A stretch of 64,000 bases of DNA from Syntrophomonadaceae bacterium (GTDB lineage: Bacteria > Bacillota > Syntrophomonadia > Syntrophomonadales > Syntrophomonadaceae). The DNA is taken from NCBI GenBank assembly GCA_012729715.1, contig JAAYCQ010000147.1:1624-65623 (forward strand), in the 5' to 3' direction. Position 1 is the stretch's first letter; each line of letters begins with the position of its first letter. Made by a program: the position numbers and the translations under genes. This document shows positions 18,586 through 32,694 of this stretch, in pieces. The notes below the pieces were generated by a model that was not told the origin of the DNA, made no database searches, and saw nothing but the letters and a program-made list of their open reading frames with translations.

Positions 18586-20106
18586 ATGGCGGATATCATG
18601 GAATACCAGATGTTTATTGATGGGAACTGGACTCCTGGTTCCTCAGGTGAGATGATGGAAGTCATCAATCCAGCAAATCGGGAGGTAGTAGCAAGAGTAC
18701 CTCGTGGTAACAAGGATGATGTGGATAAAGCTTTAGCCAGTGCACGTACTACCTTTGAATCAGGTATTTGGGCCAACAAATCTGTAGATGAAAGAGCTCA
18801 GGTACTTATGGATGCTGCCATGCTGGCCGTGGCCAACAAAGACCGTTTGGCCTACCTGGAGTCTTTGACTTCTGGAGCAACTATACGGCGTACTAGCACA
18901 GTTGACGCGGCTGAAGTCAGTGCTACCCTTTTACTCTCGGCTATGATAGCCAAAGAGCTTCCCCGGGTGGAACATGCCTTCTTTTCACCGCCCTGGGTGG
19001 CTCCCATGCACAGCTACTGGAAACGTGAACCTATTGGTGTTTGTGCTGGTATAACCCCGTGGAATTTTCCTTTGATTCTTTCGATATTTAAAATTGCCCC
19101 TGCTTTGGTCATGGGCAACAGCCTGGTCATTAAACCGGCCAGCATTACCCCTGTTACCACCTTGGAGTTAGCCAAGCTACTCAGTGATGCAGGTCTTCCT
19201 CCGGGAGTTTTTAATGTTTTAACTGGTCCCGGTTCATCTGTAGGGAATTATATGGCCCAGCATCCCGAGGTTGATAAAATAGCTTTTACCGGTTCTACCG
19301 AGGTAGGGCGCCAGGTAGCACATATGGCAGCAGACAGTATTAAGCGGGTGACTCTGGAACTGGGTGGCAAATCCCCCATCATTGTGCTGGATGATGCGGA
19401 TATGGAAGTGGCGGCAAACATGTGCTTGCTGGCTTTCCTCTTTCATTCCGGACAGGTATGTGAATCCGGAACCAGACTATTTGTACCACGAAAAATGCAA
19501 GATGAGCTGGTGGAGCGAATGATAGCCAAGATTAAAAAGATGATCATCGGTGATCAGATGAATATGGAAACTGATCTGGGTCCCATAGCCAGTGATGACC
19601 AGCTTCGTACCATTATGAATTATGTCCAGATTGGTGAGAACGAAGGAGCACAACTGGCTTATGGTGGTAATCGTTTAACTACAGGATTCTATGAAAAAGG
19701 TTTTTTCTTCGAACCAACTATTTTTATAAACTGCAACAATCAAATGACCCAGGTAAGAGAAGAAATATTCGGACCAGTTCAATGCGTAATTCCCTATGAT
19801 GATGAAGAAGAAGCCATCGCCATGGCTAATGATAGTATATACGGCCTGGGTGGAGGCGTATGCAGCACCAATGCTAACCGGGCACAAAAAATCGCTTCTA
19901 GATTGCGTACCGGAACCGTTTGGATTAATACCTGGCATGTACTGCGACCGGATGCTCCTTTTGGGGGATATAAACAAAGTGGTTATGGAAGGGAATGTTG
20001 TTATCATTCGCTCTTAGCTTATAGTGAAGTAAAACATGTGTGTCAGGACTTAACCCCTGATGGTTCGGAAAAGCTGCTCAACCTTTTGATTGGTTCTAAT
20101 AAATAG
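18586..20106 (+). CDS. NAD(P)+-dependent aldehyde dehydrogenase
   Basis: 506 aa. It has an ELGGKSP glutamate motif, FxxxGQVCxxGTR catalytic Cys context (FHSGQVCESGTR) and EEIFGPV. Confidence 0.92.
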   Translation: MADIMEYQMFIDGNWTPGSSGEMMEVINPANREVVARVPRGNKDDVDKALASARTTFESGIWANKSVDERAQVLMDAAMLAVANKDRLAYLESLTSGATIRRTSTVDAAEVSATLLLSAMIAKELPRVEHAFFSPPWVAPMHSYWKREPIGVCAGITPWNFPLILSIFKIAPALVMGNSLVIKPASITPVTTLELAKLLSDAGLPPGVFNVLTGPGSSVGNYMAQHPEVDKIAFTGSTEVGRQVAHMAADSIKRVTLELGGKSPIIVLDDADMEVAANMCLLAFLFHSGQVCESGTRLFVPRKMQDELVERMIAKIKKMIIGDQMNMETDLGPIASDDQLRTIMNYVQIGENEGAQLAYGGNRLTTGFYEKGFFFEPTIFINCNNQMTQVREEIFGPVQCVIPYDDEEEAIAMANDSIYGLGGGVCSTNANRAQKIASRLRTGTVWINTWHVLRPDAPFGGYKQSGYGRECCYHSLLAYSEVKHVCQDLTPDGSEKLLNLLIGSNK

Positions 20107-20130
20107 ATGATAGATAGGAGGGTTTTGAAG

Positions 20131-21321
20131 ATGACTATACCAAAGTATTTTGTTTGGAATTACCGTGGTACGGTCGAGGTAGGTGCAGGTTGCCGCACTT
20201 TTATACCCCAGCGTTTTGAAGAAATGGGCTGTAAACGTATTGGCCTGATTACAGATGAAGGGCTGGTTAGGGCTGGTATAGTTGATCAGGTTATGGAAAT
20301 ATTTGAGGTACAGGGTCAACCTCCAATCGTTGGCATCTATGACCGGATTGAACCTGATGCGGTAATGAGAATAATTAACGAATGTGCTCGTTGGTGCCGT
20401 GAAAATGCTGTTGATGGTCTGCTTGCAGTAGGCGGCGGCAGTGTTTTGGATTCGGTCAAAGGAGTTAAAGCCATGTTGGGTATGAAGGTTACTGATATTA
20501 GGGAAATTATGCCGGGTAATATAGGCCCTTATTTGGCTCCAATGGGAAAACCGCTAAATGTGCCGCATATAGCTATACCGACTACTGCGGGAACGGGCTC
20601 GGAGTCCTCCCCTCTGGCAGTAATTTACAACGAAGAACAAAAGGTCAAGGGGGATCTCTTACATCCTTATTTGCCTGCCGACTATGCTTTCCTGGACCCT
20701 GATTTTACAGTTGGATTACCGCCAAAGATGACAGCCGATACCGGATTTGATGCTTTATCCCATGCAGTTGAAGCAATTAGTTCTCCAGGTAGCAACTGTA
20801 TGATTGATGCTTTATCGGTGCAGGCAATTAAGTTAATCCGGAAATATCTGCCTTTGGCAGTGGAAAATGGCACTAATCTAGAAGCTCGTACCAAGATGTT
20901 GGTTGCCAGTAATATGGCTATTATGGCATTTGCCATGTCCGGATTATTCTATCCTATTCATAATGTAGCTCACGCAGTTGGTGGACAGCTTCGTATCCCC
21001 CATGGTGAAGCAAACGCAGTGCTGATACCAATACTGATGGAACAATACCCTAAGCATTATCTGCCTAATGCCGAAGTATTAGCTGATGCCTTTGGTATCG
21101 ACCTGGTAAGCAAAACAAACGAAGAACTGGTAGAGGCTTGTGCTAAAGCGGTACGGGTGCTCCAAAAGAGTTGTGGAGTAGCCCGGGTATTTTCGCAGAA
21201 ACTTGATGCCCAGACTGCTGAATTGATGTTCTGGGCGATCAAAATGGATCCAGCGGGTATATTCTATCCCCTACCGGATTCAACCATAAAAGAGTGCATC
21301 CAATGTAGTTTTAATCAATAA
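20131..21321 (+). CDS. iron-containing (group III) alcohol dehydrogenase
   Basis: Contains GGGSVLDSVK and IPTTAGTGSE motifs and a His-rich metal site (HAVEA, HNVAHAVGG). The start was moved to ATG 20131, which has RBS aggaggg upstream. Confidence 0.9.
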   Translation: MTIPKYFVWNYRGTVEVGAGCRTFIPQRFEEMGCKRIGLITDEGLVRAGIVDQVMEIFEVQGQPPIVGIYDRIEPDAVMRIINECARWCRENAVDGLLAVGGGSVLDSVKGVKAMLGMKVTDIREIMPGNIGPYLAPMGKPLNVPHIAIPTTAGTGSESSPLAVIYNEEQKVKGDLLHPYLPADYAFLDPDFTVGLPPKMTADTGFDALSHAVEAISSPGSNCMIDALSVQAIKLIRKYLPLAVENGTNLEARTKMLVASNMAIMAFAMSGLFYPIHNVAHAVGGQLRIPHGEANAVLIPILMEQYPKHYLPNAEVLADAFGIDLVSKTNEELVEACAKAVRVLQKSCGVARVFSQKLDAQTAELMFWAIKMDPAGIFYPLPDSTIKECIQCSFNQ

Positions 21322-21725: not shown

Positions 21726-22298
21726 GTGGAAAGCACTATTAAATTGACACCTCTAACCGAGCATGACCAGGTTTTGTTGGATAAAATCGAAAAAGAAGCC
21801 GGAACCAGCATCAACCTTTGCTACCAGTGCGGAAAATGTTCGGCCGGTTGTCCGGTAGGGTTTGCCATGGATTATACCCCCAGACAGGTTATCCGGCTGC
21901 TGCAGTTGGGTCTGGTTAATGAGGCGTTAAGTGCAGAGAGCATATGGATTTGTGCCAGTTGTGAAACCTGTTCCGCACGTTGTCCCCGGGGAGTAGATAT
22001 TGCTTCTCTAATGGATACCTTAAGACGGGAAGCACTGGACCGGGGTATAATCAACGATAAAAAAGTAGCCGTGTTTAACCAGGCCTTCCTGGCTGGGGTC
22101 AGAAATTTTGGTCGAACCTATGAAGCTGGATTATTACTTACCCATAACTTAAAGACTATGCAGCCTTTTAAAGATGCTGAACTGGGACTGCCCATGATGA
22201 GCCGGGGTAAGGTTCACCTGTTCCCCGCTAAAATCAAGGGCCGGGAACAGGTAAAGAAAATATTTGAACGTGCCGAAAAAATGAGGGGTGAACAGTAA
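21726..22298 (+). CDS. hdrC: heterodisulfide reductase subunit C-like protein
   Basis: Two CxxCxxCxxxCP ferredoxin motifs (CYQCGKCSAGCP and CASCETCSARCP). GTG start with RBS aaggagc. Confidence 0.88.
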   Translation: MESTIKLTPLTEHDQVLLDKIEKEAGTSINLCYQCGKCSAGCPVGFAMDYTPRQVIRLLQLGLVNEALSAESIWICASCETCSARCPRGVDIASLMDTLRREALDRGIINDKKVAVFNQAFLAGVRNFGRTYEAGLLLTHNLKTMQPFKDAELGLPMMSRGKVHLFPAKIKGREQVKKIFERAEKMRGEQ

Positions 22299-23513
22299 AT
22301 GAAACTGGCCTATTATCCTGGTTGTTCTTCGGAAGGCAGTGCTATTGAATATGACCTTTCCACTAAAAAAACTGCCCGCATGTTGGAGATTGACCTTCAG
22401 GAACTGGAAGACTGGAATTGCTGTGGGGCCACCTCGGCCCATAATACCAACAAACTATTAGCCGGGTCTTTGCCTGCTCGTAATCTGGCCATTGCCGAGC
22501 AGAATGGAATGGACACCATTCTGGCTCCCTGTGCCGCCTGTTACAACCGCCTGCATAGTACCGAACTGGCCGCACGTAAAGATAATGCTTTGCGGGAGAA
22601 GATTCAGGAAGTTATCGATATGGATTTTAAAGCCCTTACCACCACTATCTCAGTCCTGGAATGGCTGGATAATAAGGTAGGTATAGATAAAATAAAAGCC
22701 AAAGTGAGCAATCCTTTAAAAGGAATGAAAGCCGCCTGTTACTACGGCTGCTTATTGGTGAGGCCGGCTGAACATACCGGTTTTGACGATACTGAAGACC
22801 CGCAGAGTATGGATCGGATAGTCAGGGCTCTGGGAGCACAAACCGTAGACTGGCCTTATAAAGTAGAATGTTGTGGAGCTGCCCTGGCTACTTCCCGGCC
22901 GGAAATAGGGGCTAAAATGATTTATGAGGTAATTGCCAATGCCAAAGCTGCGGGAGCCGAGTGTCTGGTTACCGCCTGCCCGCTGTGCATGCTTAACCTG
23001 GACATGCGCCAGGCCGGGACTGAGAAGATGTTTAAGGAAAAATTAAACCTGCCGGTTTACTATGTAACCGAACTGGTAGCTATAGCCGGCGGTGCCAGTC
23101 CAGCAGAGGTAGGCGTAGGGAAACACTTTGTGGAAGCTATAAGCTATCTGCAATCCCTGCCCGCCCGGGCAGCAGAGATGGAAGCAGCAGAGCCCCGGCC
23201 GGTTAAAAAAGCCGCTAAAGCCGAGCCGGATGACAGTGATGGAGAAGCGGTTGCCAGTGAAGATGCCGAAGCCCTGCAGAAAAAGATAGATGCTATGATT
23301 AAAGGATTTAACAAAAACCCGGACAAAATGGCAGCTCGACTAATCGAAGACGAGGAAAGGGCAAAAGTACTGGTCGAAGTAATAAGCGGAGACGAGAAAA
23401 AAACCGCCCGCCTGGCTGAGCTAATGGTGACCGATAAAGAAAAAGCTACCAAAGCCGCAGAAGCCTTCGTCACCGGGGAGCTGAAGAAGAGAGAAAAAGA
23501 GAGTAAGGGTTAA
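22299..23513 (+). CDS. hdrB: heterodisulfide reductase subunit B-like protein with a C-terminal extension of about 115 aa
   Basis: Two CCG domains (WNCCGA..C..CY and VECCGA..CPLC). The last 115 aa or so are A/E/K-rich low complexity. Confidence 0.88.
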   Translation: MKLAYYPGCSSEGSAIEYDLSTKKTARMLEIDLQELEDWNCCGATSAHNTNKLLAGSLPARNLAIAEQNGMDTILAPCAACYNRLHSTELAARKDNALREKIQEVIDMDFKALTTTISVLEWLDNKVGIDKIKAKVSNPLKGMKAACYYGCLLVRPAEHTGFDDTEDPQSMDRIVRALGAQTVDWPYKVECCGAALATSRPEIGAKMIYEVIANAKAAGAECLVTACPLCMLNLDMRQAGTEKMFKEKLNLPVYYVTELVAIAGGASPAEVGVGKHFVEAISYLQSLPARAAEMEAAEPRPVKKAAKAEPDDSDGEAVASEDAEALQKKIDAMIKGFNKNPDKMAARLIEDEERAKVLVEVISGDEKKTARLAELMVTDKEKATKAAEAFVTGELKKREKESKG

Positions 23514-23528
23514 GGAGGGAGAAGGAAA

Positions 23529-25514
23529 ATGAGCAAACGGGTGGGGGTATTCGTATGTGAATGCGGAACCAACATAGCTTCCGTAGTAGATACGGCCCGG
23601 GTTGCCGAGGAAGCCGGTAAATTCCCCGGAGTTGCATTTGCCACTACTTATAAATATATGTGCTCCGATCCCGGACAGGAGTTAATCCGGAAATCCATCG
23701 AAGAACAAAAGCTGGAACAGGTAGTAGTAGCTTCCTGTTCGCCCCGCATGCACGAAAACACTTTCCGCAAAGCCGTCGCAGCGGGAGGTATTAACCCCTA
23801 TTTATTTGAGATGGTCAACATCCGGGAACAGGATTCCTGGGTTCATAGCGACCGGGAAGAGGCTACTCGCAAGGCTATAGACCTGGTTAAAATGGGAGTT
23901 AGCAAAGTCTTGCGCAACCAGCCCCTGCAGATTTCTACCATCCCTGTTACCAAGAGAGCCCTGGTAATAGGAGGCGGCATAGCAGGAATGCAGGCTGCTC
24001 TGGACATTGCTGAAGGGGGGCACCAGGTCATACTGGTAGAAAGAGAGGCCAGCATTGGCGGGAAAATGACCCAGCTGGATAAGACCTTTCCCACCATGGA
24101 CTGCGCCGCCTGAATAGGCACTCCCAAGATGGTTGCTGTGGCGCAGCACCCTAACATTGAACTGATAACTTATGCTGAGGTAACTGGTGTTACCGGTTAT
24201 ATTGGCAATTTTAACGTAACTATTAAGAAAAAGCCTAAATATGTAGACTGGGATCTCTGTACCGGTTGTGGTACCTGTATAGAAAAATGCCCAACCAAAA
24301 AGATTAAAGATGAGTTTGAACTGGGGCTGGGCCTGAGGACTTCCATTCATATGGTTTATCCCCAGGCGGTACCGGGTAAACCCTTTATAGATGCTGACAA
24401 CTGTACCAAACTGACTAAAAATAAGTGCGGTGTTTGTGAGAAGGTATGCCCAACCAAAGCCATTAAGTTTGACGATAAGGAAGAATTTATAAACAAAGAA
24501 GTGGGAGCCATAGTGATGGCTACCGGTTATGACCTGTTTAACTGGGAAGAAGCTTACGGGGAATACGGATATGGCAAATACCCGGACGTAATCAGCGGCT
24601 TACATTTTGAACGGCTGGTAAGCGCTGGAGGACCTACCGGAGGTAAAATTAAGCGGCCATCAGATGGCAAGGAACCAAAAAGCGTGGCCTTTATTAAATG
24701 TGTAGGTTCCCGGGATGATACCAAGGGTAAAAGCTACTGTTCCCGTGCCTGCTGTATGTATACCGCCAAACATGCTTATCAGGTGAAGGATAAAATACCG
24801 GACAGTGAAGCTTATGTATTTTATATGGACGTACGTACCGCGGGAAAGAACTATGAAGAATTTTATCAGCGCGCCCTGAATGCTGGGGCTCGATATATAA
24901 GGGGACGGGTAAGTAAAATCTACCCCCGCGGAGACCGCCTGGTGTTAAAGTCTGAAGACAGCCTGCTCGGTCGACCGGTAGAAGTAGAAGCCGATATGGT
25001 GGTACTGGCTACGGCCATGGTTCCTGCTGCCGGGTCTGATGAACTGGCGCGGACTGTAGGTTTTTCCATGGACAAGGACGGTTTCTACCAGGAAGCTCAC
25101 CCCAAATTACAACCGGTAGAGACTTTTGCTGCCGGGGTATTCCTGGCTGGAACCTGCCAGGGACCTAAGGATATACCAGATACAGTGGCTCAGGCCAGTG
25201 GAGCGGCAGCTAAAGTTCTGGGATTACTGAGCAAGACCAGGCTGGCTACCGAGCCTATGGTATCTGAAGTTGATATTAATAAATGTTCCGGTTGTGGCTT
25301 ATGTGTTCCGATTTGTCCTTACAATGCCATTACTCTGGAGGAAATTCAGGAGCGGGGTCATCATGGGCCTATTACTCGTAATGTAGCCGTGGTCAACAGC
25401 AGTCTTTGCCAGGGATGTGGGGCCTGTGTCCCCGCCTGCCGGACTGCCGCCCTGAATACCAAGGGCTTTACCGACGATCAACTGGTAGCGGAGGTGGATG
25501 CAATATGTCTATAG
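23529..25514 (+). CDS. hdrA: heterodisulfide reductase subunit A-like flavoprotein, with in-frame UGA at 24111-24113 read as selenocysteine
   Basis: ORFs 23529-24113 and 24129-25514 are in the same frame with only TGA between them. The joined sequence reads FPTMDCAA-U-IGTPKMV. This matches my recollection of the HdrA motif FPTxDCxxC(I/L)xxPK, with Cys at that position. FAD motif VIGGGIAGMQAA and four ferredoxin-type Cys clusters are present. Confidence 0.85.
24131..24150 (+). promoter_or_regulatory. candidate bacterial SECIS hairpin for hdrA
   Basis: Structure ggt(t)gctg-tggcg-cagcacc: a 7-bp stem with one bulge and a G-rich 5-nt loop. It starts 17 nt after the UGA. Confidence 0.55.
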
Positions 25515-25939
25515 ATAGTAAAACCAGCTGGCAGCCCCGGATAATTGTTTTTGCCTGTAATTGGTGTACCTATGCGGCAGCTGACCTGGCCGGTTTAAAC
25601 CATTTACAGTACCCGGCTGATGTCAGGATTATCCGCACCCCTTGCTCGGGGCGCATGGACCCTATGCTGGTAATGCGGGCCTTTAACCGGGGAGCCGATG
25701 GGGTTTTATTATCCGGGTGACACCCGGGCGAATGCCACTATGGTAGTGGCAATTACTATAACCGCCGCCGCCACACGATTATGAAAAGCCTCCTGGAATA
25801 TGTCGGAGTGGAGCCGGCGAGGTACCAGACTGCCTGGATATCAGGTGCAGAAGGGTTAAAATTTCAACAGACCATGCAGAAACTGGTTGATGATGTTAAG
25901 ACCCTGGGACCGAACAGAAAGCTGAGGGATGCCAGATGA
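25505..25939 (+). CDS. flxD: MvhD/FlxD-like [2Fe-2S] protein, with in-frame UGA at 25718-25720 read as selenocysteine
   Basis: The frame continues after the TGA as HPGECHYGSGNYYNRRR...WISGAEG. This gives LLSG-U-HPGECHY, which matches the MvhD motif SGCHxGDCHY. The start ATG 25505 overlaps the hdrA stop. The true stop TGA at 25937-25939 overlaps the next start (ATGA). Confidence 0.85.
25734..25750 (+). promoter_or_regulatory. candidate bacterial SECIS hairpin for flxD
   Basis: Structure gccacta-tgg-tagtggc: a perfect 7-bp stem starting 13 nt after the UGA. Confidence 0.6.
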
Positions 25940-26841
25940 ATGATATAACCTTAAAAATCAGAGAAATTGCTACCCGGCTTCTGCAAAACGGTCAGGTGGA
26001 TATATTTATGGGCTGGGAAAAAGGCCAGGAAGAATATACGACCCGTCCCTTTTTTGCCCGCCGGGTAGAAGATGTAGAAAAGCTCATTTTTAATGAATAT
26101 TCCATCCATAACTTGTCCAATGATTTGCTTAAATACCGGGACGGACAGGAGAAGATAGGTATTGTCGTTAAGGGCTGTGATTCCCGCGGAATAGTTAGAC
26201 TGTTGCAGGATGGGCAGATTAAGCGGCAGCGCTTATACATTGTCGGGGTAGCCTGCCCGGGCATGAAAGATCCGCTGCAGGCAGTTAAGGATAATTCTGG
26301 GTTTTTCCCCGCTACTACCAGCGGCGAACTGGCTAGAAAATGCAACGATTGCATAGAGCCTAATCCGGTTATTTATGACGAGTTAATCGGTGATAAACAA
26401 ACCCCGCGGGTAGGGCAGGAGCGTTTCAAGTTGGTTAAGGATATTGAAAACATGAGCGCGGACCAGCGTTATGAATTTTTTGAGGATGTATTTTCCCGCT
26501 GCATTCGCTGTTATGCCTGCCGCCAGGTATGTGTAGCCTGTAACTGCCGCACCTGCATATTTGACGAAATGAAACCCCAGTGGGTAGGGCGGGAAACGAG
26601 TATAAGCGATAACTTCATGTACCACCTGGTGCGGGCTTCGCATATGGCCGGGCGCTGCATCGAGTGCGGCGAGTGTGAACGGGTATGCCCGGTAAATATT
26701 CCCCTGATGCTTATAAATCAAAAACTGATTAAGGATGTAAATAAATTCTTTGGGCCTTATGAAGCAGGTATGGTTTACATTGAAGGGGCTAAACCCCCCT
26801 TAAGTTCCTACCAGGAAAACGACCCGGATAATTTCTTATAG
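25936..26841 (+). CDS. flxC: FlxC-like iron-sulfur protein
   Basis: Cys clusters CIRCYACRQVCVACNC and CIECGECERVCP. Positioned between flxD and flxB. Confidence 0.75.
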   Translation: MNDITLKIREIATRLLQNGQVDIFMGWEKGQEEYTTRPFFARRVEDVEKLIFNEYSIHNLSNDLLKYRDGQEKIGIVVKGCDSRGIVRLLQDGQIKRQRLYIVGVACPGMKDPLQAVKDNSGFFPATTSGELARKCNDCIEPNPVIYDELIGDKQTPRVGQERFKLVKDIENMSADQRYEFFEDVFSRCIRCYACRQVCVACNCRTCIFDEMKPQWVGRETSISDNFMYHLVRASHMAGRCIECGECERVCPVNIPLMLINQKLIKDVNKFFGPYEAGMVYIEGAKPPLSSYQENDPDNFL

Positions 26842-26854
26842 GGGGTGAAGATAA

Positions 26855-27877
26855 ATGCCGATATTGAGCAAGTCTAAAATAAAAGACGTCTTAAACCAGT
26901 TAAGTCAAAACGCGGAACTCTTTGTACCCCTGGCCCGGGGAGATGAAAGCGGCTTTTACTCCTGGAACAGCTATCAGGAGGGCAGTGACCGCTTGATGCT
27001 GGATGCATTAAATGTTTTATTGCCGCCCAAGAGTATAGTATTCCCGCAGACTGAGAGGATGTACAGTTTTACTGGCAATGGTACGACAGTAGAGATAAAG
27101 GAAACCTTTGAAAGCCCCCAGCCCAGGATAATATTTGGTTTGCGCGCTTGTGATGCGGCTGCTATTGCCTGCTTTGATGATGTCTTTCTAACCATGGGGT
27201 TTGTAGACAGTTTCTATCAGGCTAGAAGAGATAATACTACCATAGTGGCTCATGCCTGTTACCAGCCAGGTGCCAATTGTTTCTGTGAAGCTATGGGGGT
27301 TGACCCTACGGAGCCGGTAAATGCCGATGTTATTATTCGCGATACCGGAGATTCCTATATTTGGGAGAGTAAGACTGATAAAGGCGAAAAACTGAGTGCT
27401 GCCCTGGGAGCCCTGTTGGAAAACAAAGAGGCGAAATCACCCCAATTGCAGCCATTTAAACAGCAGGCTAATTATGAGGGAGTGGCAGAAAAACTTAAAG
27501 GTATGTTTGAAGACCCGATGTGGGAAGAACTGGCCTCAACCTGTCAGACCTGTGGTATTTGCACTTATGTTTGCCCTTCCTGTTACTGCTTTGATATCCA
27601 GGTAAAATCCTGGGGAGATGAAGGTTATCGTTTCCGCTGTTATGATTCCTGCATGTATTCTGAGTATACATTAATGGCGGGAGGTCACAACCCGCGCAGT
27701 AATGAACAGGAACGCTTCCGCAACCGTTTCCTGCACAAGCTGCAATTCTTCTCGGAGCGATATGGTAAACCCCTTTGTACCGGCTGTGGTAGATGCATAG
27801 TAGCCTGCCCGGTAGGAATTAACATTGTTCAGATTATAAATCAGGTTAAGGAGGCGGATACCAGTGTCAGAGCATAA
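26855..27877 (+). CDS. flxB: FlxB-like iron-sulfur protein (AsrA / sulfhydrogenase beta-like)
   Basis: Cys clusters CQTCGICTYVCPSCYCFD and CTGCGRCIVACP. Confidence 0.75.
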   Translation: MPILSKSKIKDVLNQLSQNAELFVPLARGDESGFYSWNSYQEGSDRLMLDALNVLLPPKSIVFPQTERMYSFTGNGTTVEIKETFESPQPRIIFGLRACDAAAIACFDDVFLTMGFVDSFYQARRDNTTIVAHACYQPGANCFCEAMGVDPTEPVNADVIIRDTGDSYIWESKTDKGEKLSAALGALLENKEAKSPQLQPFKQQANYEGVAEKLKGMFEDPMWEELASTCQTCGICTYVCPSCYCFDIQVKSWGDEGYRFRCYDSCMYSEYTLMAGGHNPRSNEQERFRNRFLHKLQFFSERYGKPLCTGCGRCIVACPVGINIVQIINQVKEADTSVRA

Positions 27878-28706
27878 ATGTAACTGTGAAAACCCACTGG
27901 TTCCAGGAGTAGTAGAAGTTATTGATATCAAAGACGAAACCCCGGATGTTAAAAGCTTTTTTGTCCGCAGTATCGGCGGGGGAGTACCCTTTGATGTTAT
28001 GCCCGGACAGCTGGGTATGGTATCCCTACTACCAGTAGGTGAAGGGATGTATTCCGTTTCCTGGCAGGAAGAACAAGAATACCTGCATTTTGCTATTAAA
28101 AGAGTGGGACTGATGACTAACGAGCTGCACCGCATCGAAGTAGGTCATCAGCTGGGAGTTAGGGGTCCATATGGAAATGGCTTCCCGGTAGAGGAGTGCA
28201 AAGGTAAGGATATGCTCTTTATTGCCGGCGGTATTGGCTTGGCACCCTTGCGTTCCTTTATCAAATACTGCTTTAAACATCGCCAGGACTATGGCAAGAT
28301 TCAGATAATATACGGCAGTCGCAGCTATGCTGACCTCTGTTTCAAAGATGAACTCTTTGAAAAATGGCCCCAGGAAAAAGATACTGAGGTTTACATTACG
28401 ATTGATAACCCGGAGGAAGGCTGGGATGGGCATGTAGGTTTTGTCCCCGCTTACCTGGAGGAAATAAACCCAGCCGCCGCAGGTAAGATAGCAGTTGTCT
28501 GCGGACCGCCGGTAATGATAAAATTTGTCCTGCAATCCCTGGAAAAGATGGGCTATACTGATGAACAGGTAATCAGCACTCTGGAAATGCGCATGAAATG
28601 CGGCATAGGTAAATGTGGTCGCTGCAATGTCGGCAGTCAGTATATTTGCCTGGATGGCCCGGTTTTTAACCTGGCCCAGCTAAAACAGCTGCCGCCGGAG
28701 TGGTAA
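27864..28706 (+). CDS. flxA: FlxA-like FAD/NAD(P)H-binding oxidoreductase with a C-terminal [2Fe-2S] site (PyrK/AsrB-like)
   Basis: Ferredoxin-reductase-type fold motifs are present (MLFIAGGIGLAPL, VCGPPVM). The terminal Cys cluster is CGIGKCGRCNVG. The GTG start overlaps flxB by 14 nt. Confidence 0.8.
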   Translation: MSEHKCNCENPLVPGVVEVIDIKDETPDVKSFFVRSIGGGVPFDVMPGQLGMVSLLPVGEGMYSVSWQEEQEYLHFAIKRVGLMTNELHRIEVGHQLGVRGPYGNGFPVEECKGKDMLFIAGGIGLAPLRSFIKYCFKHRQDYGKIQIIYGSRSYADLCFKDELFEKWPQEKDTEVYITIDNPEEGWDGHVGFVPAYLEEINPAAAGKIAVVCGPPVMIKFVLQSLEKMGYTDEQVISTLEMRMKCGIGKCGRCNVGSQYICLDGPVFNLAQLKQLPPEW

Positions 28707-28752: not shown

Positions 28753-29322
28753 TTATCTGCTAATCCAACTTACCAGGATAGTACCCAGAGCCGCGGCCAG
28801 CCATTCATTTTCCTGTAACAATTGAACGTATTCAGCCAGGCTTCCTTTTGTGATTTCATCGGCAGACAAAAGTTTTTCCACTTGCAATAAAAAAGCAGCA
28901 AAATTTTCTCCTGAACCGGGAGCTTTTATTTTTATCAGGCTGTTAAGATAATCCAAGTAATCAGTAATCAGGTTGGGTTGGTCAGGTTCGACAGGTAGTT
29001 CAGATGGTGAACATGGTACCGGAGAGTCAGTGCAGCCCTCCTTGCTTCCAAAATAGGCTCTATCCTGAAACCACTGACCTTCAACATATTCATGTTCAGT
29101 AGCTAAAACCAAAAATTCTTCCTGAGATTGTACCGCTACCAGCAAATCACCGGCAATAACATCTACGCCTGGAAACAAAGCTATATAATTACGGCCGCTG
29201 TATGGGTCACAATTCTTTAGGCCATCAACTTCTCCAACTACTTCTGAACCACGGTTAACCGTAAACTTAATCCCTGACATTTCCATTATAGTTTTTAATA
29301 CCGGATTGACACTTGTACTCAT
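28753..29322 (-). CDS. hypothetical protein, 189 aa
   Basis: ORF with RBS-like ggggg upstream. No recognisable motif. Confidence 0.6.
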   Translation of the reverse strand: MSTSVNPVLKTIMEMSGIKFTVNRGSEVVGEVDGLKNCDPYSGRNYIALFPGVDVIAGDLLVAVQSQEEFLVLATEHEYVEGQWFQDRAYFGSKEGCTDSPVPCSPSELPVEPDQPNLITDYLDYLNSLIKIKAPGSGENFAAFLLQVEKLLSADEITKGSLAEYVQLLQENEWLAAALGTILVSWISR

Positions 29323-30012: not shown

Positions 30013-32694
30013 ATGTCAGACCTGCGTAATGATTTGCTTAACCCTACCTTAAAAGAAACACTGAGCATGTTTCAGCTGGATAAAAATTATATATCAGGAA
30101 AGGGGAGCTATTTGTTTGACGAGAAGGGCCGGCGCTATCTAGATTTTATTGCCCAATACGGAGCTGTTCCCTTCGGTTATAACCCCGAATTTATCTGGGA
30201 GCGCTTGCAGGAGGTACGTGAGAAATCCCTCCCTAGTTTAGTTCAGCCCTCCCTTCCTCAGGAAGCATTGAAGCTAGCTAATATGCTGGCAGATTGCAGC
30301 CCCGGGAACCTTTGTTATTGTACTTTCTGCCAGAGCGGGGCGGAAGCAGTGGAAACTTCTATTAAGCTGGCTCGATCCAGCACTGGCAGGAAAATTATTG
30401 TTTCTACTACTAATAGTTTTCACGGTAAAACTATGGGCGCTTTATCGGCTACTGGAAAGGAATCTTATCAAAAACCATTCTATGCACCTATTCCCGGTTT
30501 TCAAACTGTACCCTTCAATGATGTAGAGGCTCTGGAGCAGATATTTGCCCGGCAAGGTAACGATATTGCGGCCTTCATAGTTGAACCTATTCAAGGTGAA
30601 GGTGGTATAATCGAAGCCCGACCAGGTTACCTGACCGCTGCCCGGGAAATCTGCAGCGCTTATGGGGCTGCCTTGATACTGGACGAGATTCAAACCGGAT
30701 TAGGCAGAACCGGCAGGCTCTTTGCCTGCGAACATGAGGGTGTTGAGCCTGATATTATGTTACTGGCCAAAGCTCTGGGTGGTGGTTTATTGCCGCTGGC
30801 GGTATGTATCAGTTCTCCTCGGATATGGAACGATGATTTTGGTATGTTGCATAGTTCAACTTTTGCCAATAATAATCTAACCTGCTCTGTAGGCCAGGCG
30901 GTACTGGAAAAGCTGAACGCTGATGAGCAGCAGTTGGTACAGGAGGTAGCCAAAAAGGGTGATTACCTCCTGGATAAACTACGTCAACTAGCCGATCGTT
31001 ATCCCGATGCGGTTAAAGAAGTGCGGGGAAGAGGCCTGATGCTGGGACTGGAATTCCATGATCTTAAAGATTGTGGGTCCTATGATACGGCTTTTATAAT
31101 TAACGCTGGCGGGTTTACCGCATTGGTAACAGGCTTTTTATTAAATGTGTACAATATTCGCCTGGCTCCCTTTCTAAATGATTCCATGACTTTAAGATTA
31201 GAGCCGGCTCTAAATATTTCCTATGAGGAAATGGATTACGTTTTAAAAGCCCTGGATATAGTATGTAAAATTGTTAGTTACCGTGATTTTGCCCGCTTTT
31301 ATCACTACTTACTTGGAGATTATAGTAAACCTGAACAGATTATCGACTACCGTCCCCAAAGCCGCAAAACCAAATCTTCGCGGCTTAAACCAGGAGAGGA
31401 AGCCAGTGAAAAGTTTGCTTTTATCATTCATTATCCTGCCCCCGAAGACGTGGTAGCCAATAATCCATCGTTTGTTAAATTTAACCGGGAGGAACTGTAC
31501 CGCTTTCTGGACTGGCAGAAGGACAGCCCCGGGGTACAGATAGTATGCCATATGCCAGCCATCAAGTCACTGGATGGTAAAATTGCCGAAGGCTGGTTAA
31601 TCGGAGTGCCTTTTGGTGCCCGGGAAATGATGAATTTGCCCCGACAGGAAACCATAACCATGGTTACCGAAGCAGTAGACTTAGGCAAAGAGCTGGGAGC
31701 CAGGATAGTAGGGCTGGGGGCTTTGACTTCAGTAGTTACCCGTGGAGGCAGGTCGGTTCAGGATCGGGGGGTGGCTATAACCAGCGGCAATAGTTTTACC
31801 ACTTTAATGGCCATGGAGGCCCTATTTGCCGGTGCCGAAAAAATGCATATTAATCCTGACCATAGCAGGGCGGCTGTAGTTGGAGCTACTGGGTCTATTG
31901 GTCGTACCTGCACTTTAATGTTATCTGAACAATCCAGCCAGATTACTTTGCTGGGTAACCCACAGAGGCCAAATAACGGCAACCAGAGACTGGAGTCCCT
32001 CTTTTCTGAATTATTGGCCTACGCTTATAGGAGATTACAAAGCGGCCAAATGACAGGATTAAGCGGGTGGTTAAAACAAAGCCTGGATATGCTTATTAAA
32101 CATGATAGTTCCAGGGCCCGGGAATTTGCTCAGGTTTTGACTGATGGCAGTGACATATCTTCCCAATTACTATCCGATATATGTGACTACCTGGGAATTG
32201 AAATGCCGCTACAAGTCAGTTTGGATATCGATGCCACCTTACCCCTATGTGATATGATTGTTGCCGCCAGTAATTCTCCCGAATATATCATTTATCCCCG
32301 ACATCTTAAACCGGGAGCAGTTGTTTGCGATGTTGCCCGTCCGGCCGATGTTTCCCCCCAGGTTTTTAAAGAACGGGATGATGTTCTTATCCTGGAGGGT
32401 GGATTGGTACAGTATCCGGACAAGATATCTTTCGGCCCTAATCTGGGTTACCGGGACGGCGTAAATCTGGCCTGTCTATCGGAAACCGTACTGCTAGCCC
32501 TGGAAGGGGACTACAATGATTACAGCATAGGTTCCCACATACCCCTGGAGACGGTTAATTACCTGCGCAGCCTGGGTAAAAAACATGGCCTGGGCCTGGC
32601 CGGACTTAAAATGGATAACCAGGAAATAAGCGACCGGGAAATCGAAGCCATCTACCAACGTTCTTTACAGCTTAAGAAGGTTAATAATATATAG
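30013..32694 (+). CDS. fusion protein: class-III (omega) aminotransferase domain plus acyl-ACP/acyl-CoA reductase (cyanobacterial AAR-like) domain
   Basis: The N-terminal 430 aa or so carry SGAEAVETSIKLAR, FHGKTMGALS, IVEPIQGEGG, LDEIQTGLGRTG, LLAKALGGG (PLP Lys) and HSSTFANN. From about residue 476 the motifs match my memory of AAR: GLGALTSVVT (AAR ALGGFTSI), ITSGNSFT (TTGNTHT), AVVGATGSIGRT (VVGATGDIGSA), and NLACLSETVLLALEG (FACFAEAMLLEFEG, which holds the catalytic Cys). Confidence 0.8.
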   Translation: MSDLRNDLLNPTLKETLSMFQLDKNYISGKGSYLFDEKGRRYLDFIAQYGAVPFGYNPEFIWERLQEVREKSLPSLVQPSLPQEALKLANMLADCSPGNLCYCTFCQSGAEAVETSIKLARSSTGRKIIVSTTNSFHGKTMGALSATGKESYQKPFYAPIPGFQTVPFNDVEALEQIFARQGNDIAAFIVEPIQGEGGIIEARPGYLTAAREICSAYGAALILDEIQTGLGRTGRLFACEHEGVEPDIMLLAKALGGGLLPLAVCISSPRIWNDDFGMLHSSTFANNNLTCSVGQAVLEKLNADEQQLVQEVAKKGDYLLDKLRQLADRYPDAVKEVRGRGLMLGLEFHDLKDCGSYDTAFIINAGGFTALVTGFLLNVYNIRLAPFLNDSMTLRLEPALNISYEEMDYVLKALDIVCKIVSYRDFARFYHYLLGDYSKPEQIIDYRPQSRKTKSSRLKPGEEASEKFAFIIHYPAPEDVVANNPSFVKFNREELYRFLDWQKDSPGVQIVCHMPAIKSLDGKIAEGWLIGVPFGAREMMNLPRQETITMVTEAVDLGKELGARIVGLGALTSVVTRGGRSVQDRGVAITSGNSFTTLMAMEALFAGAEKMHINPDHSRAAVVGATGSIGRTCTLMLSEQSSQITLLGNPQRPNNGNQRLESLFSELLAYAYRRLQSGQMTGLSGWLKQSLDMLIKHDSSRAREFAQVLTDGSDISSQLLSDICDYLGIEMPLQVSLDIDATLPLCDMIVAASNSPEYIIYPRHLKPGAVVCDVARPADVSPQVFKERDDVLILEGGLVQYPDKISFGPNLGYRDGVNLACLSETVLLALEGDYNDYSIGSHIPLETVNYLRSLGKKHGLGLAGLKMDNQEISDREIEAIYQRSLQLKKVNNI

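Follow-up and report, generated by a model that had tools for sequence, protein, structure and literature searches.

The question raised by this locus is whether a TGA triplet that interrupts hdrA, a gene for an HdrA-type flavoprotein, ends translation or is read as an amino acid. The window, by which is meant the whole stretch of 64,000 nucleotides that was analysed, comes from contig JAAYCQ010000147.1 of the Syntrophomonadaceae bacterium assembly GCA_012729715.1, and in its list of open reading frames (ORFs) hdrA appears as two pieces, 23529-24113 and 24129-25514. The starts of these pieces lie 600 nucleotides apart (24129-23529), which places them in a common frame, and translation of the window shows that the sole stop separating them is the TGA at 24111-24113, with the junction peptide FPTMDCAA-[TGA]-IGTPKMV. 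The first-pass annotation, made from the letters alone, had described this split and this junction and had warned that an automated annotation would report fragments; the offset of the starts, the translation and the ORF list bear it out on all three counts. Taken together with the comparative evidence, these sequences make it very probable that hdrA is one intact gene of 661 codons (23529..25514, forward strand) in which the UGA at 24111..24113 is decoded as selenocysteine (Sec, U), giving residue U195 of a C192-A-A-U195 pair.

The ATG at 23529 is preceded by a strong Shine-Dalgarno sequence (AAGGAGGGAG), and none was found on the 5' side of the ATG at 24129. Read through the TGA, the product matches the HdrA profile NF040770 along almost its full length (E 6.5e-249, residues 4-659 on profile positions 1-640). 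The score of 828 bits is below the NCBI cut-off of 1100 for methanogen HdrA, and two further HdrA models also fall under theirs (602/1300 and 599/1400 bits), so the product is called an HdrA homologue and is not assigned as the coenzyme B-coenzyme M (CoB-CoM) enzyme. The HdrA2 profile contains a fused MvhD part (positions 642-774), MvhD being a separate gene here. Five distinct HdrA sequences of solved structure align end to end with the product (residues 4-658, E 2e-217 to 5e-196), and the 74 residues around the TGA align with all five without a gap. The TGA column holds Cys in four of the five, including Cys197 of 5odc_A, and a non-standard residue, X at 197, in the fifth, 9sfi_A. C192-A-A-U195 thereby aligns with the D-C-S-x-C of the solved chains, and the TGA takes the place of the second Cys in C-x-x-C.

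The same column was followed through 41 genomes, the assembly itself (G000) and 40 relatives, queried with the HdrA protein. A close HdrA match was present in 37 of the 41, and 36 of the 40 match rows span residue 195; exactly one TGA occurs in 35 of these and none in one. The position of the TGA was read in the 30 loci that were fetched, while six further TGA rows were counted without position: it falls at the identical column in 29 of the 30, the remaining locus, L045, having TGC. The relatives' HdrA proteins are between 98% and 73% identical to the query, and the part after the TGA is therefore under purifying selection. A wider census, which scanned one genome per species and shares several contigs with the 41-genome search, gave 81 matches in 80 loci, with TGA in 22, TGC in 38 and TGT in 21 (Cys in 59) and no other residue in the column. 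The nearest of these loci belong to Syntrophomonas or Syntrophomonadaceae, among them Syntrophomonas wolfei subsp. methylbutyratica (L068), which at 85% identity has TGA in the equal column and an identical hairpin. The motif FPTxDCxxC(I/L)xxPK, with Cys at the UGA, had been cited in the first-pass annotation; it agrees with the solved structures and the 59 Cys-coding homologues, and the alignment with Cys homologues that was proposed there as a check returns Cys and nothing else.

Downstream of the UGA lies a predicted bacterial selenocysteine insertion sequence (SECIS) hairpin at 24131..24151 (forward strand), which begins 17 nt past the TGA and reads GGUUGCUGUGGCGCAGCACC(C) over 24131-24150/51. 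ViennaRNA folds it into a 6-bp stem (UGCUGU/GCAGCA) with the loop GGC and, beyond a 1x1 mismatch, two outer G-C pairs (GG/CC); the bare hairpin has a minimum free energy (MFE) of -8.8 kcal/mol. The stem of 7 bp with one bulged U and a UGGCG loop that had been drawn by eye is an equivalent drawing of this fold. Constraints on bacterial SECIS elements (bSECIS), as given in the available text of a 2026 review, are an apical loop of 3-9 nt on an upper stem of 4-16 bp, a G at one of the two leading positions of the loop, with G or U often coming next, a distance of 16-37 nt from the UGA to the apical loop, and an MFE of -7.5 kcal/mol or lower (PMC13188914). This hairpin falls within all four limits, and so does a second one in the adjacent gene mvhD/flxD: in hdrA the loop is GGC, or UGGCG with the U-G pair open, on a stem of 5-6 bp, and the UGA-to-loop spacing is 26 nt (24114-24139). 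The loop U-GGC-G fits the pattern N1-G-[G|U]-N-N2, and GGC is found in 29 of 32 distinct Sec segments. The SECIS-compatible placement proposed at the outset thus holds, and it is kept in the TGA-bearing orthologues.

Stronger evidence for the hairpin comes from comparison among genes. For the analysis of synonymous sites, 50 Sec-type genes were reduced to 42 distinct coding sequences and then to 31 of full length (640-720 codons); the 11 dropped were 10 incomplete sequences, owing to contig ends or the choice of start codon, and the distant Anaerolineae sequence L118. Across hdrA in the 31 full-length genes the mean synonymous codon entropy is 1.28 bits, and the eight lowest 7-codon windows of the entire gene all begin at residues 197-205, with the minimum of 0.32 at residue 200, so that the strongest synonymous-site constraint of hdrA coincides with the hairpin. 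Of the six inner pairs, five or more are kept in 31 of 32 distinct Sec segments as against 3 of 60 Cys segments, and in the Cys paralogues L045 and L065 the peptide KMVAVAQHP is unchanged while synonymous codons break the stem. Over 33 distinct sequences, 97.7% of the hairpin cells are paired, and the closing pair of the stem varies among UG (13), UA (11) and CG (9), the non-pairing C-A occurring in 0/33. From these comparisons it is claimed that selection acts on the RNA at this site.

A separate observation concerns L118, whose HdrA is 47% identical to the query. It carries TGA in the same column, at locus position ~2077, followed at about equal distance by a different and stronger hairpin (GGAUGCC-GGUC-GGCAUCC), and looks like an independent Cys-to-Sec conversion. 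Within the assembly itself, the C-terminal part of HdrA has a ferredoxin-like match (locus L017, G000:C88:3709-3906, reverse strand) that also contains one in-frame TGA; this may belong to a further selenoprotein gene or simply reflect the boundary of a gene.

A second codon of the same kind, which the first-pass annotation overlooked, lies 1.6 kb 3' of the first. The mvhD/flxD-like gene (25505..25939, forward strand), whose start overlaps the hdrA stop, has 144 codons with one TGA read through and is likewise broken in the ORF track. It matches PF02662 (E 2.3e-50 over 13-135) and, below cut-off, the VhuD model NF045873 (E 6e-37). Its predicted UGA Sec codon at 25718..25720, in the context LLSG-U-HPGECHY, corresponds to the first Cys of G-C-H-P-G-D/E-C-H-Y, and among 80 distinct segments of the fetched loci this column holds TGA in 36 and Cys in 44. 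A predicted SECIS hairpin follows at 25734..25750 (GCCACUA-UGG-UAGUGGC), with a 7-bp stem, the loop UGG, a UGA-to-loop spacing of 20 nt (25721-25740) and a folding energy of -8.5 kcal/mol (z -2.91, 2/200 shuffles as good); it was found again in most of the TGA-bearing relatives displayed. Two TGAs at Cys columns, each with a G-rich-loop hairpin and in adjacent genes, would be hard to explain save by Sec decoding. The two columns vary separately: L033 and L034 have TGA in hdrA and TGT or TGC in mvhD, while L045 has TGC in hdrA and TGA in mvhD, a pattern from which it follows that the Sec and Cys states of HdrA and MvhD switch independently. On a different contig of the genome that contains L045 (G013) there is also a partial hdrA of the Sec type, and L045 is therefore a paralogous operon. 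A scan of the window for other TGA-interrupted frames returned only short N-terminal extensions or opposite-strand frames overlapping better genes.

The assembly also encodes what Sec decoding requires. It is a draft of 298 contigs, 93% complete with 4% estimated contamination, and contains a tRNA-Sec scoring 72.3 bits against a cut-off of 47, called tRNA-SeC with anticodon tca by ARAGORN as well. Profile searches of its contigs gave selA (570 bits), selB (394 bits), which adjoins selA on one contig, and selD (382 bits). These are the four genes, selA, selB, selC (the tRNA-Sec) and selD, whose presence had been named as a check on the Sec assignment. Since selB scores over cut-off in 41/41 sampled genomes of the order Syntrophomonadales, G000 included, the Sec-decoding trait belongs to the lineage. 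The selD gene, which lies outside the window (G000:C203:8037-8960, reverse strand), encodes a selenoprotein too: an in-frame TGA interrupts it within RAAG-U-AAK, and this context fits the UxxK given as the SelD Sec motif in the available text of PMC13188914.

Several results weigh against Sec decoding of hdrA or against the reality of its hairpin. The region 24105-24175 folds no better than its dinucleotide shuffles (z -0.07, 96/200 as good), the segment 24111-24155 gives z 0.20, and the 21-mer hairpin alone gives z -1.49. A two-sided change was found in 0/8 stem pairs among the 33 distinct rows, five pairs being invariant; the shuffle control stands at only 6/500; and the U34-A48 pair is unpaired in 4/33 rows and G32-C50 in 2/33. 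Because two-sided pair changes are absent, support for the hairpin amounts to conservation and not covariation, and what lifts it above chance is the freezing of synonymous sites together with the contrast between Sec and Cys genes. An Rfam scan of 23900-25900 with E up to 10 returned no SECIS family, its sole match being a chance snoRNA-like one; short bacterial SECIS hairpins are evidently not captured by Rfam. The Sec-bearing sequences are close kin, so their counts overstate independence, and the machinery genes lie on contigs other than that of the window, in the fragmented and slightly contaminated draft just described.

Set against these points are the difficulties of reading the TGA in any other way. 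Were it a real stop, hdrA would be a pseudogene, made by a recent nonsense mutation or by an error of assembly, and a single base change from TGC or TGT in a draft as fragmented as this one would be enough to produce it. Such an accident would have to recur, however, in the equal column of 29/30 readable loci from separate genomes, down to the 73% identity given above; it would also have left the frame intact past the TGA, with the synonymous sites just 3' of it the most constrained of the gene, in a genome that, at 93% completeness, was found to hold no other close hdrA. Comparison with orthologues effectively excludes both the pseudogene and the assembly error, and the chance that either is correct is close to nil. 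Only slightly more credit, and still very little, can be given to a gene that is truly split, in which the UGA stops translation and ATG 24129 starts it anew, so that two polypeptides assemble. An in-frame ATG does stand 15 nt past the TGA, and a certain amount of termination is to be expected as a side effect of Sec codons, above all under selenium shortage. The proposed restart codon nevertheless has no Shine-Dalgarno sequence and is not conserved, its Met being replaced in L027, which has PKTV; the relatives conserve the peptide of the five codons between TGA and ATG (IGTPK), which also aligns with solved HdrA; and a split would cost the redox pair its second residue.

It is similarly improbable that the UGA specifies one of the standard amino acids independently of selenium, either by near-cognate insertion of Cys or Trp or as a sense codon throughout the genome. 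Homologues have Cys in this column, so that Cys insertion would give a working enzyme, and TGA is the rarest stop among the long ORFs of the window (4/45). Yet the orthologues have exactly one TGA per 661 codons, TGA still terminates genes here, mvhD itself included, a complete Sec machinery is encoded, and conservation of the SECIS-type hairpin is confined to genes that have TGA as the codon. The single TGA in each orthologue and the use of TGA as a gene terminator rule out a general reassignment of UGA. Sec decoding of an intact hdrA is accordingly preferred to all of these alternatives, although minor termination at the UGA, or misincorporation of Cys at low selenium, is expected as a minor outcome.

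By analogy with the standard bacterial pathway, we infer that SelB carrying Sec-tRNA(Sec) would bind the mRNA hairpin at 24131-24151 within the coding sequence and, upon arrival of the ribosome at the UGA, would deliver Sec in competition with release factor 2, which it would outcompete. The product would be a 661-residue HdrA-type flavoprotein in which U195 is paired with C192 beside the flavin adenine dinucleotide (FAD), and mvhD/flxD would be decoded likewise, with its UGA at 25718-25720 and its hairpin at 25734-25750. What such a pair may do is suggested by Methanococcus maripaludis HdrA, in which, according to the available text of a 2026 paper, Sec197 is joined to a cysteine between iron-sulfur (Fe-S) cluster A3 and FAD (PMC13518236). 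The Cys-Sec selenylsulfide of methanogen HdrA is proposed there as an electron relay between the Fe-S cluster and the bifurcating flavin, by way of a reversible thiol-selenol shuttle, and its authors call the role unresolved (PMC13518236). U195 corresponds to this position 197, and the C-x-x-U/C pair and the FAD and Fe-S domains are alike, so that C192-U195 may have a redox role like that of the Sec197 pair.

A more tentative proposal, possible but rather unlikely on present evidence, is that U195 of HdrA and the U of FlxD/MvhD (G-U-H-P-G-E-C-H-Y) are two stations of one selenol/thiol relay to the bifurcating flavin, in an Flx-Hdr complex dependent on reduced nicotinamide adenine dinucleotide (NADH). 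The Sec or Cys state of the two positions may be tuned independently, as the contrast of L033 and L034 with L045 suggests. In some relatives, G013 and the assembly with L057 and L064 among them, there is a further hdrA of the Cys type, which could serve as a backup under selenium limitation, as Vhc does relative to Vhu in Methanococcus. Should this hold, the natural Sec/Cys swaps would offer ready-made variants bearing on the contribution of selenium to flavin-based bifurcation.

A Sec-containing HdrA in this lineage is correctly identified but already known, being a well-known feature of HdrA in syntrophic anaerobes, and the initial judgement that it was plausible rather than novel proves apt. 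In the available text of Zhang et al. (2006), the 25 bacterial selenoprotein families include HdrA (16 selenoproteins) and FrhD (19), and both are listed among the selenoproteins of Syntrophomonas wolfei, Carboxydothermus hydrogenoformans, Desulfotomaculum reducens and Moorella thermoacetica (PMC1794560). The present gene is an orthologue of the Sec-HdrA of S. wolfei and other Clostridia, alike in family, in lineage and in the co-occurrence of a Sec-containing FrhD/MvhD, with no substantive difference from what the available text of that paper records. Families named in the available part of the 2026 review include HdrA (NF040770, CxxU) and MvhD/VhuD (PF02662), and archaeal hdrA is described there as having its SECIS in an untranslated region, in contrast to the hairpin inside the coding sequence here (PMC13188914). 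The partners differ as well: Flx-type NAD(P)H module genes stand beside hdrA here, and [NiFe] hydrogenase or formate dehydrogenase takes that place in methanogens.

A like pair of selenoprotein genes, with a like split of the annotation at the UGA, is found in Desulfococcus multivorans, whose hdrA and mvhD each bear a pair of locus tags, with a Sec codon connecting the two (PMC5109826). That organism belongs to the Deltaproteobacteria, and its hdrA and mvhD are non-adjacent, judging by the locus tags shown. Read under the standard code, hdrA and mvhD/flxD of the present locus look like fragments or pseudogenes, and a metabolic reconstruction built on such a misannotation would lose the only close HdrA and the Flx-Hdr electron-bifurcation module. 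Read with Sec, they would imply an ethanol- or fatty-acid-linked redox metabolism that depends on selenium supply. The locus extends by one orthologue a selenoprotein family that has been on record since 2006, and its main use is for annotation.

The two genes lie within seven consecutive genes (21726-28706) in the order hdrCBA-flxDCBA, all on the forward strand. Upstream of hdrA stand an hdrC-like iron-sulfur subunit (21726..22298), with Fer4 dicluster domains and a match to TIGR03290 below cut-off (E 9e-25), and an hdrB-like subunit with CCG domains (22299..23513), which matches PF02754 in two stretches and TIGR03288 below cut-off (E 2e-54). Since all scores against the methanogen equivalogs fall under their cut-offs, the three hdr products are regarded as HdrABC homologues and not assigned as CoB-CoM heterodisulfide reductase. 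Downstream of mvhD/flxD, a flxC-like protein of 301 residues (25936..26841) takes its name from its position; it has a weak Fe-S stretch (NF045670, E 3e-7) and no Pfam family at E 1e-5. It is followed by a flxB-like iron-sulfur protein of the AsrA/HydB-like type (26855..27877; PF17179, E 1.4e-30; TIGR02910, E 6.5e-52, below cut-off) and by a flxA-like NAD(P)H/FAD/[2Fe-2S] protein of the AsrB/HydG-like type (27864..28706; PF00175 and PF10418; NF006220, E 1e-63, below cut-off). With flxC taken by position, the domain content is that of a flxABCD-hdrABC cluster, for which part of the subunit definitions reportedly comes from Ramos et al. in 2015; the same work, as cited in PMC6687939, is said to have linked the cluster to ethanol metabolism. 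On the forward strand just before the operon are genes for an aldehyde dehydrogenase (18586..20106; PF00171, E 1.9e-163) and an iron-containing alcohol dehydrogenase (20107..21321; PF00465/PF25137). Judged by gene order and domain content, the operon is the hdrCBA-flxDCBA cluster of Syntrophomonadaceae, beside aldehyde and alcohol dehydrogenase genes.

A flxABCD-hdrABC cluster has been described for a Syntrophomonas genome, according to the available text of PMC6687939. The activity that characterises such systems is the reduction of ferredoxin and of a disulfide acceptor at the expense of NADH. The FlxABCD-HdrABC of Desulfovibrio vulgaris and of Syntrophomonas metagenome-assembled genomes is like the present one in gene content and in its alcohol or aldehyde dehydrogenase neighbours, as far as that text covers them (PMC6687939). 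The present operon differs in its order, hdrCBA-flxDCBA, and in its two predicted selenoprotein subunits; HdrA and FrhD are not among the D. vulgaris selenoproteins in Table 3 of PMC1794560, a source available in part.

Two further ORFs lie beyond the operon. Just past its end, the ORF at 28753-29322 on the reverse strand has no match in Pfam or NCBIfam. Farther on, the 893-residue ORF at 30013-32694 on the forward strand, of which the remaining ~540 residues match no Pfam family at E 1e-5, contains a class-III aminotransferase domain at residues 28-354 only.

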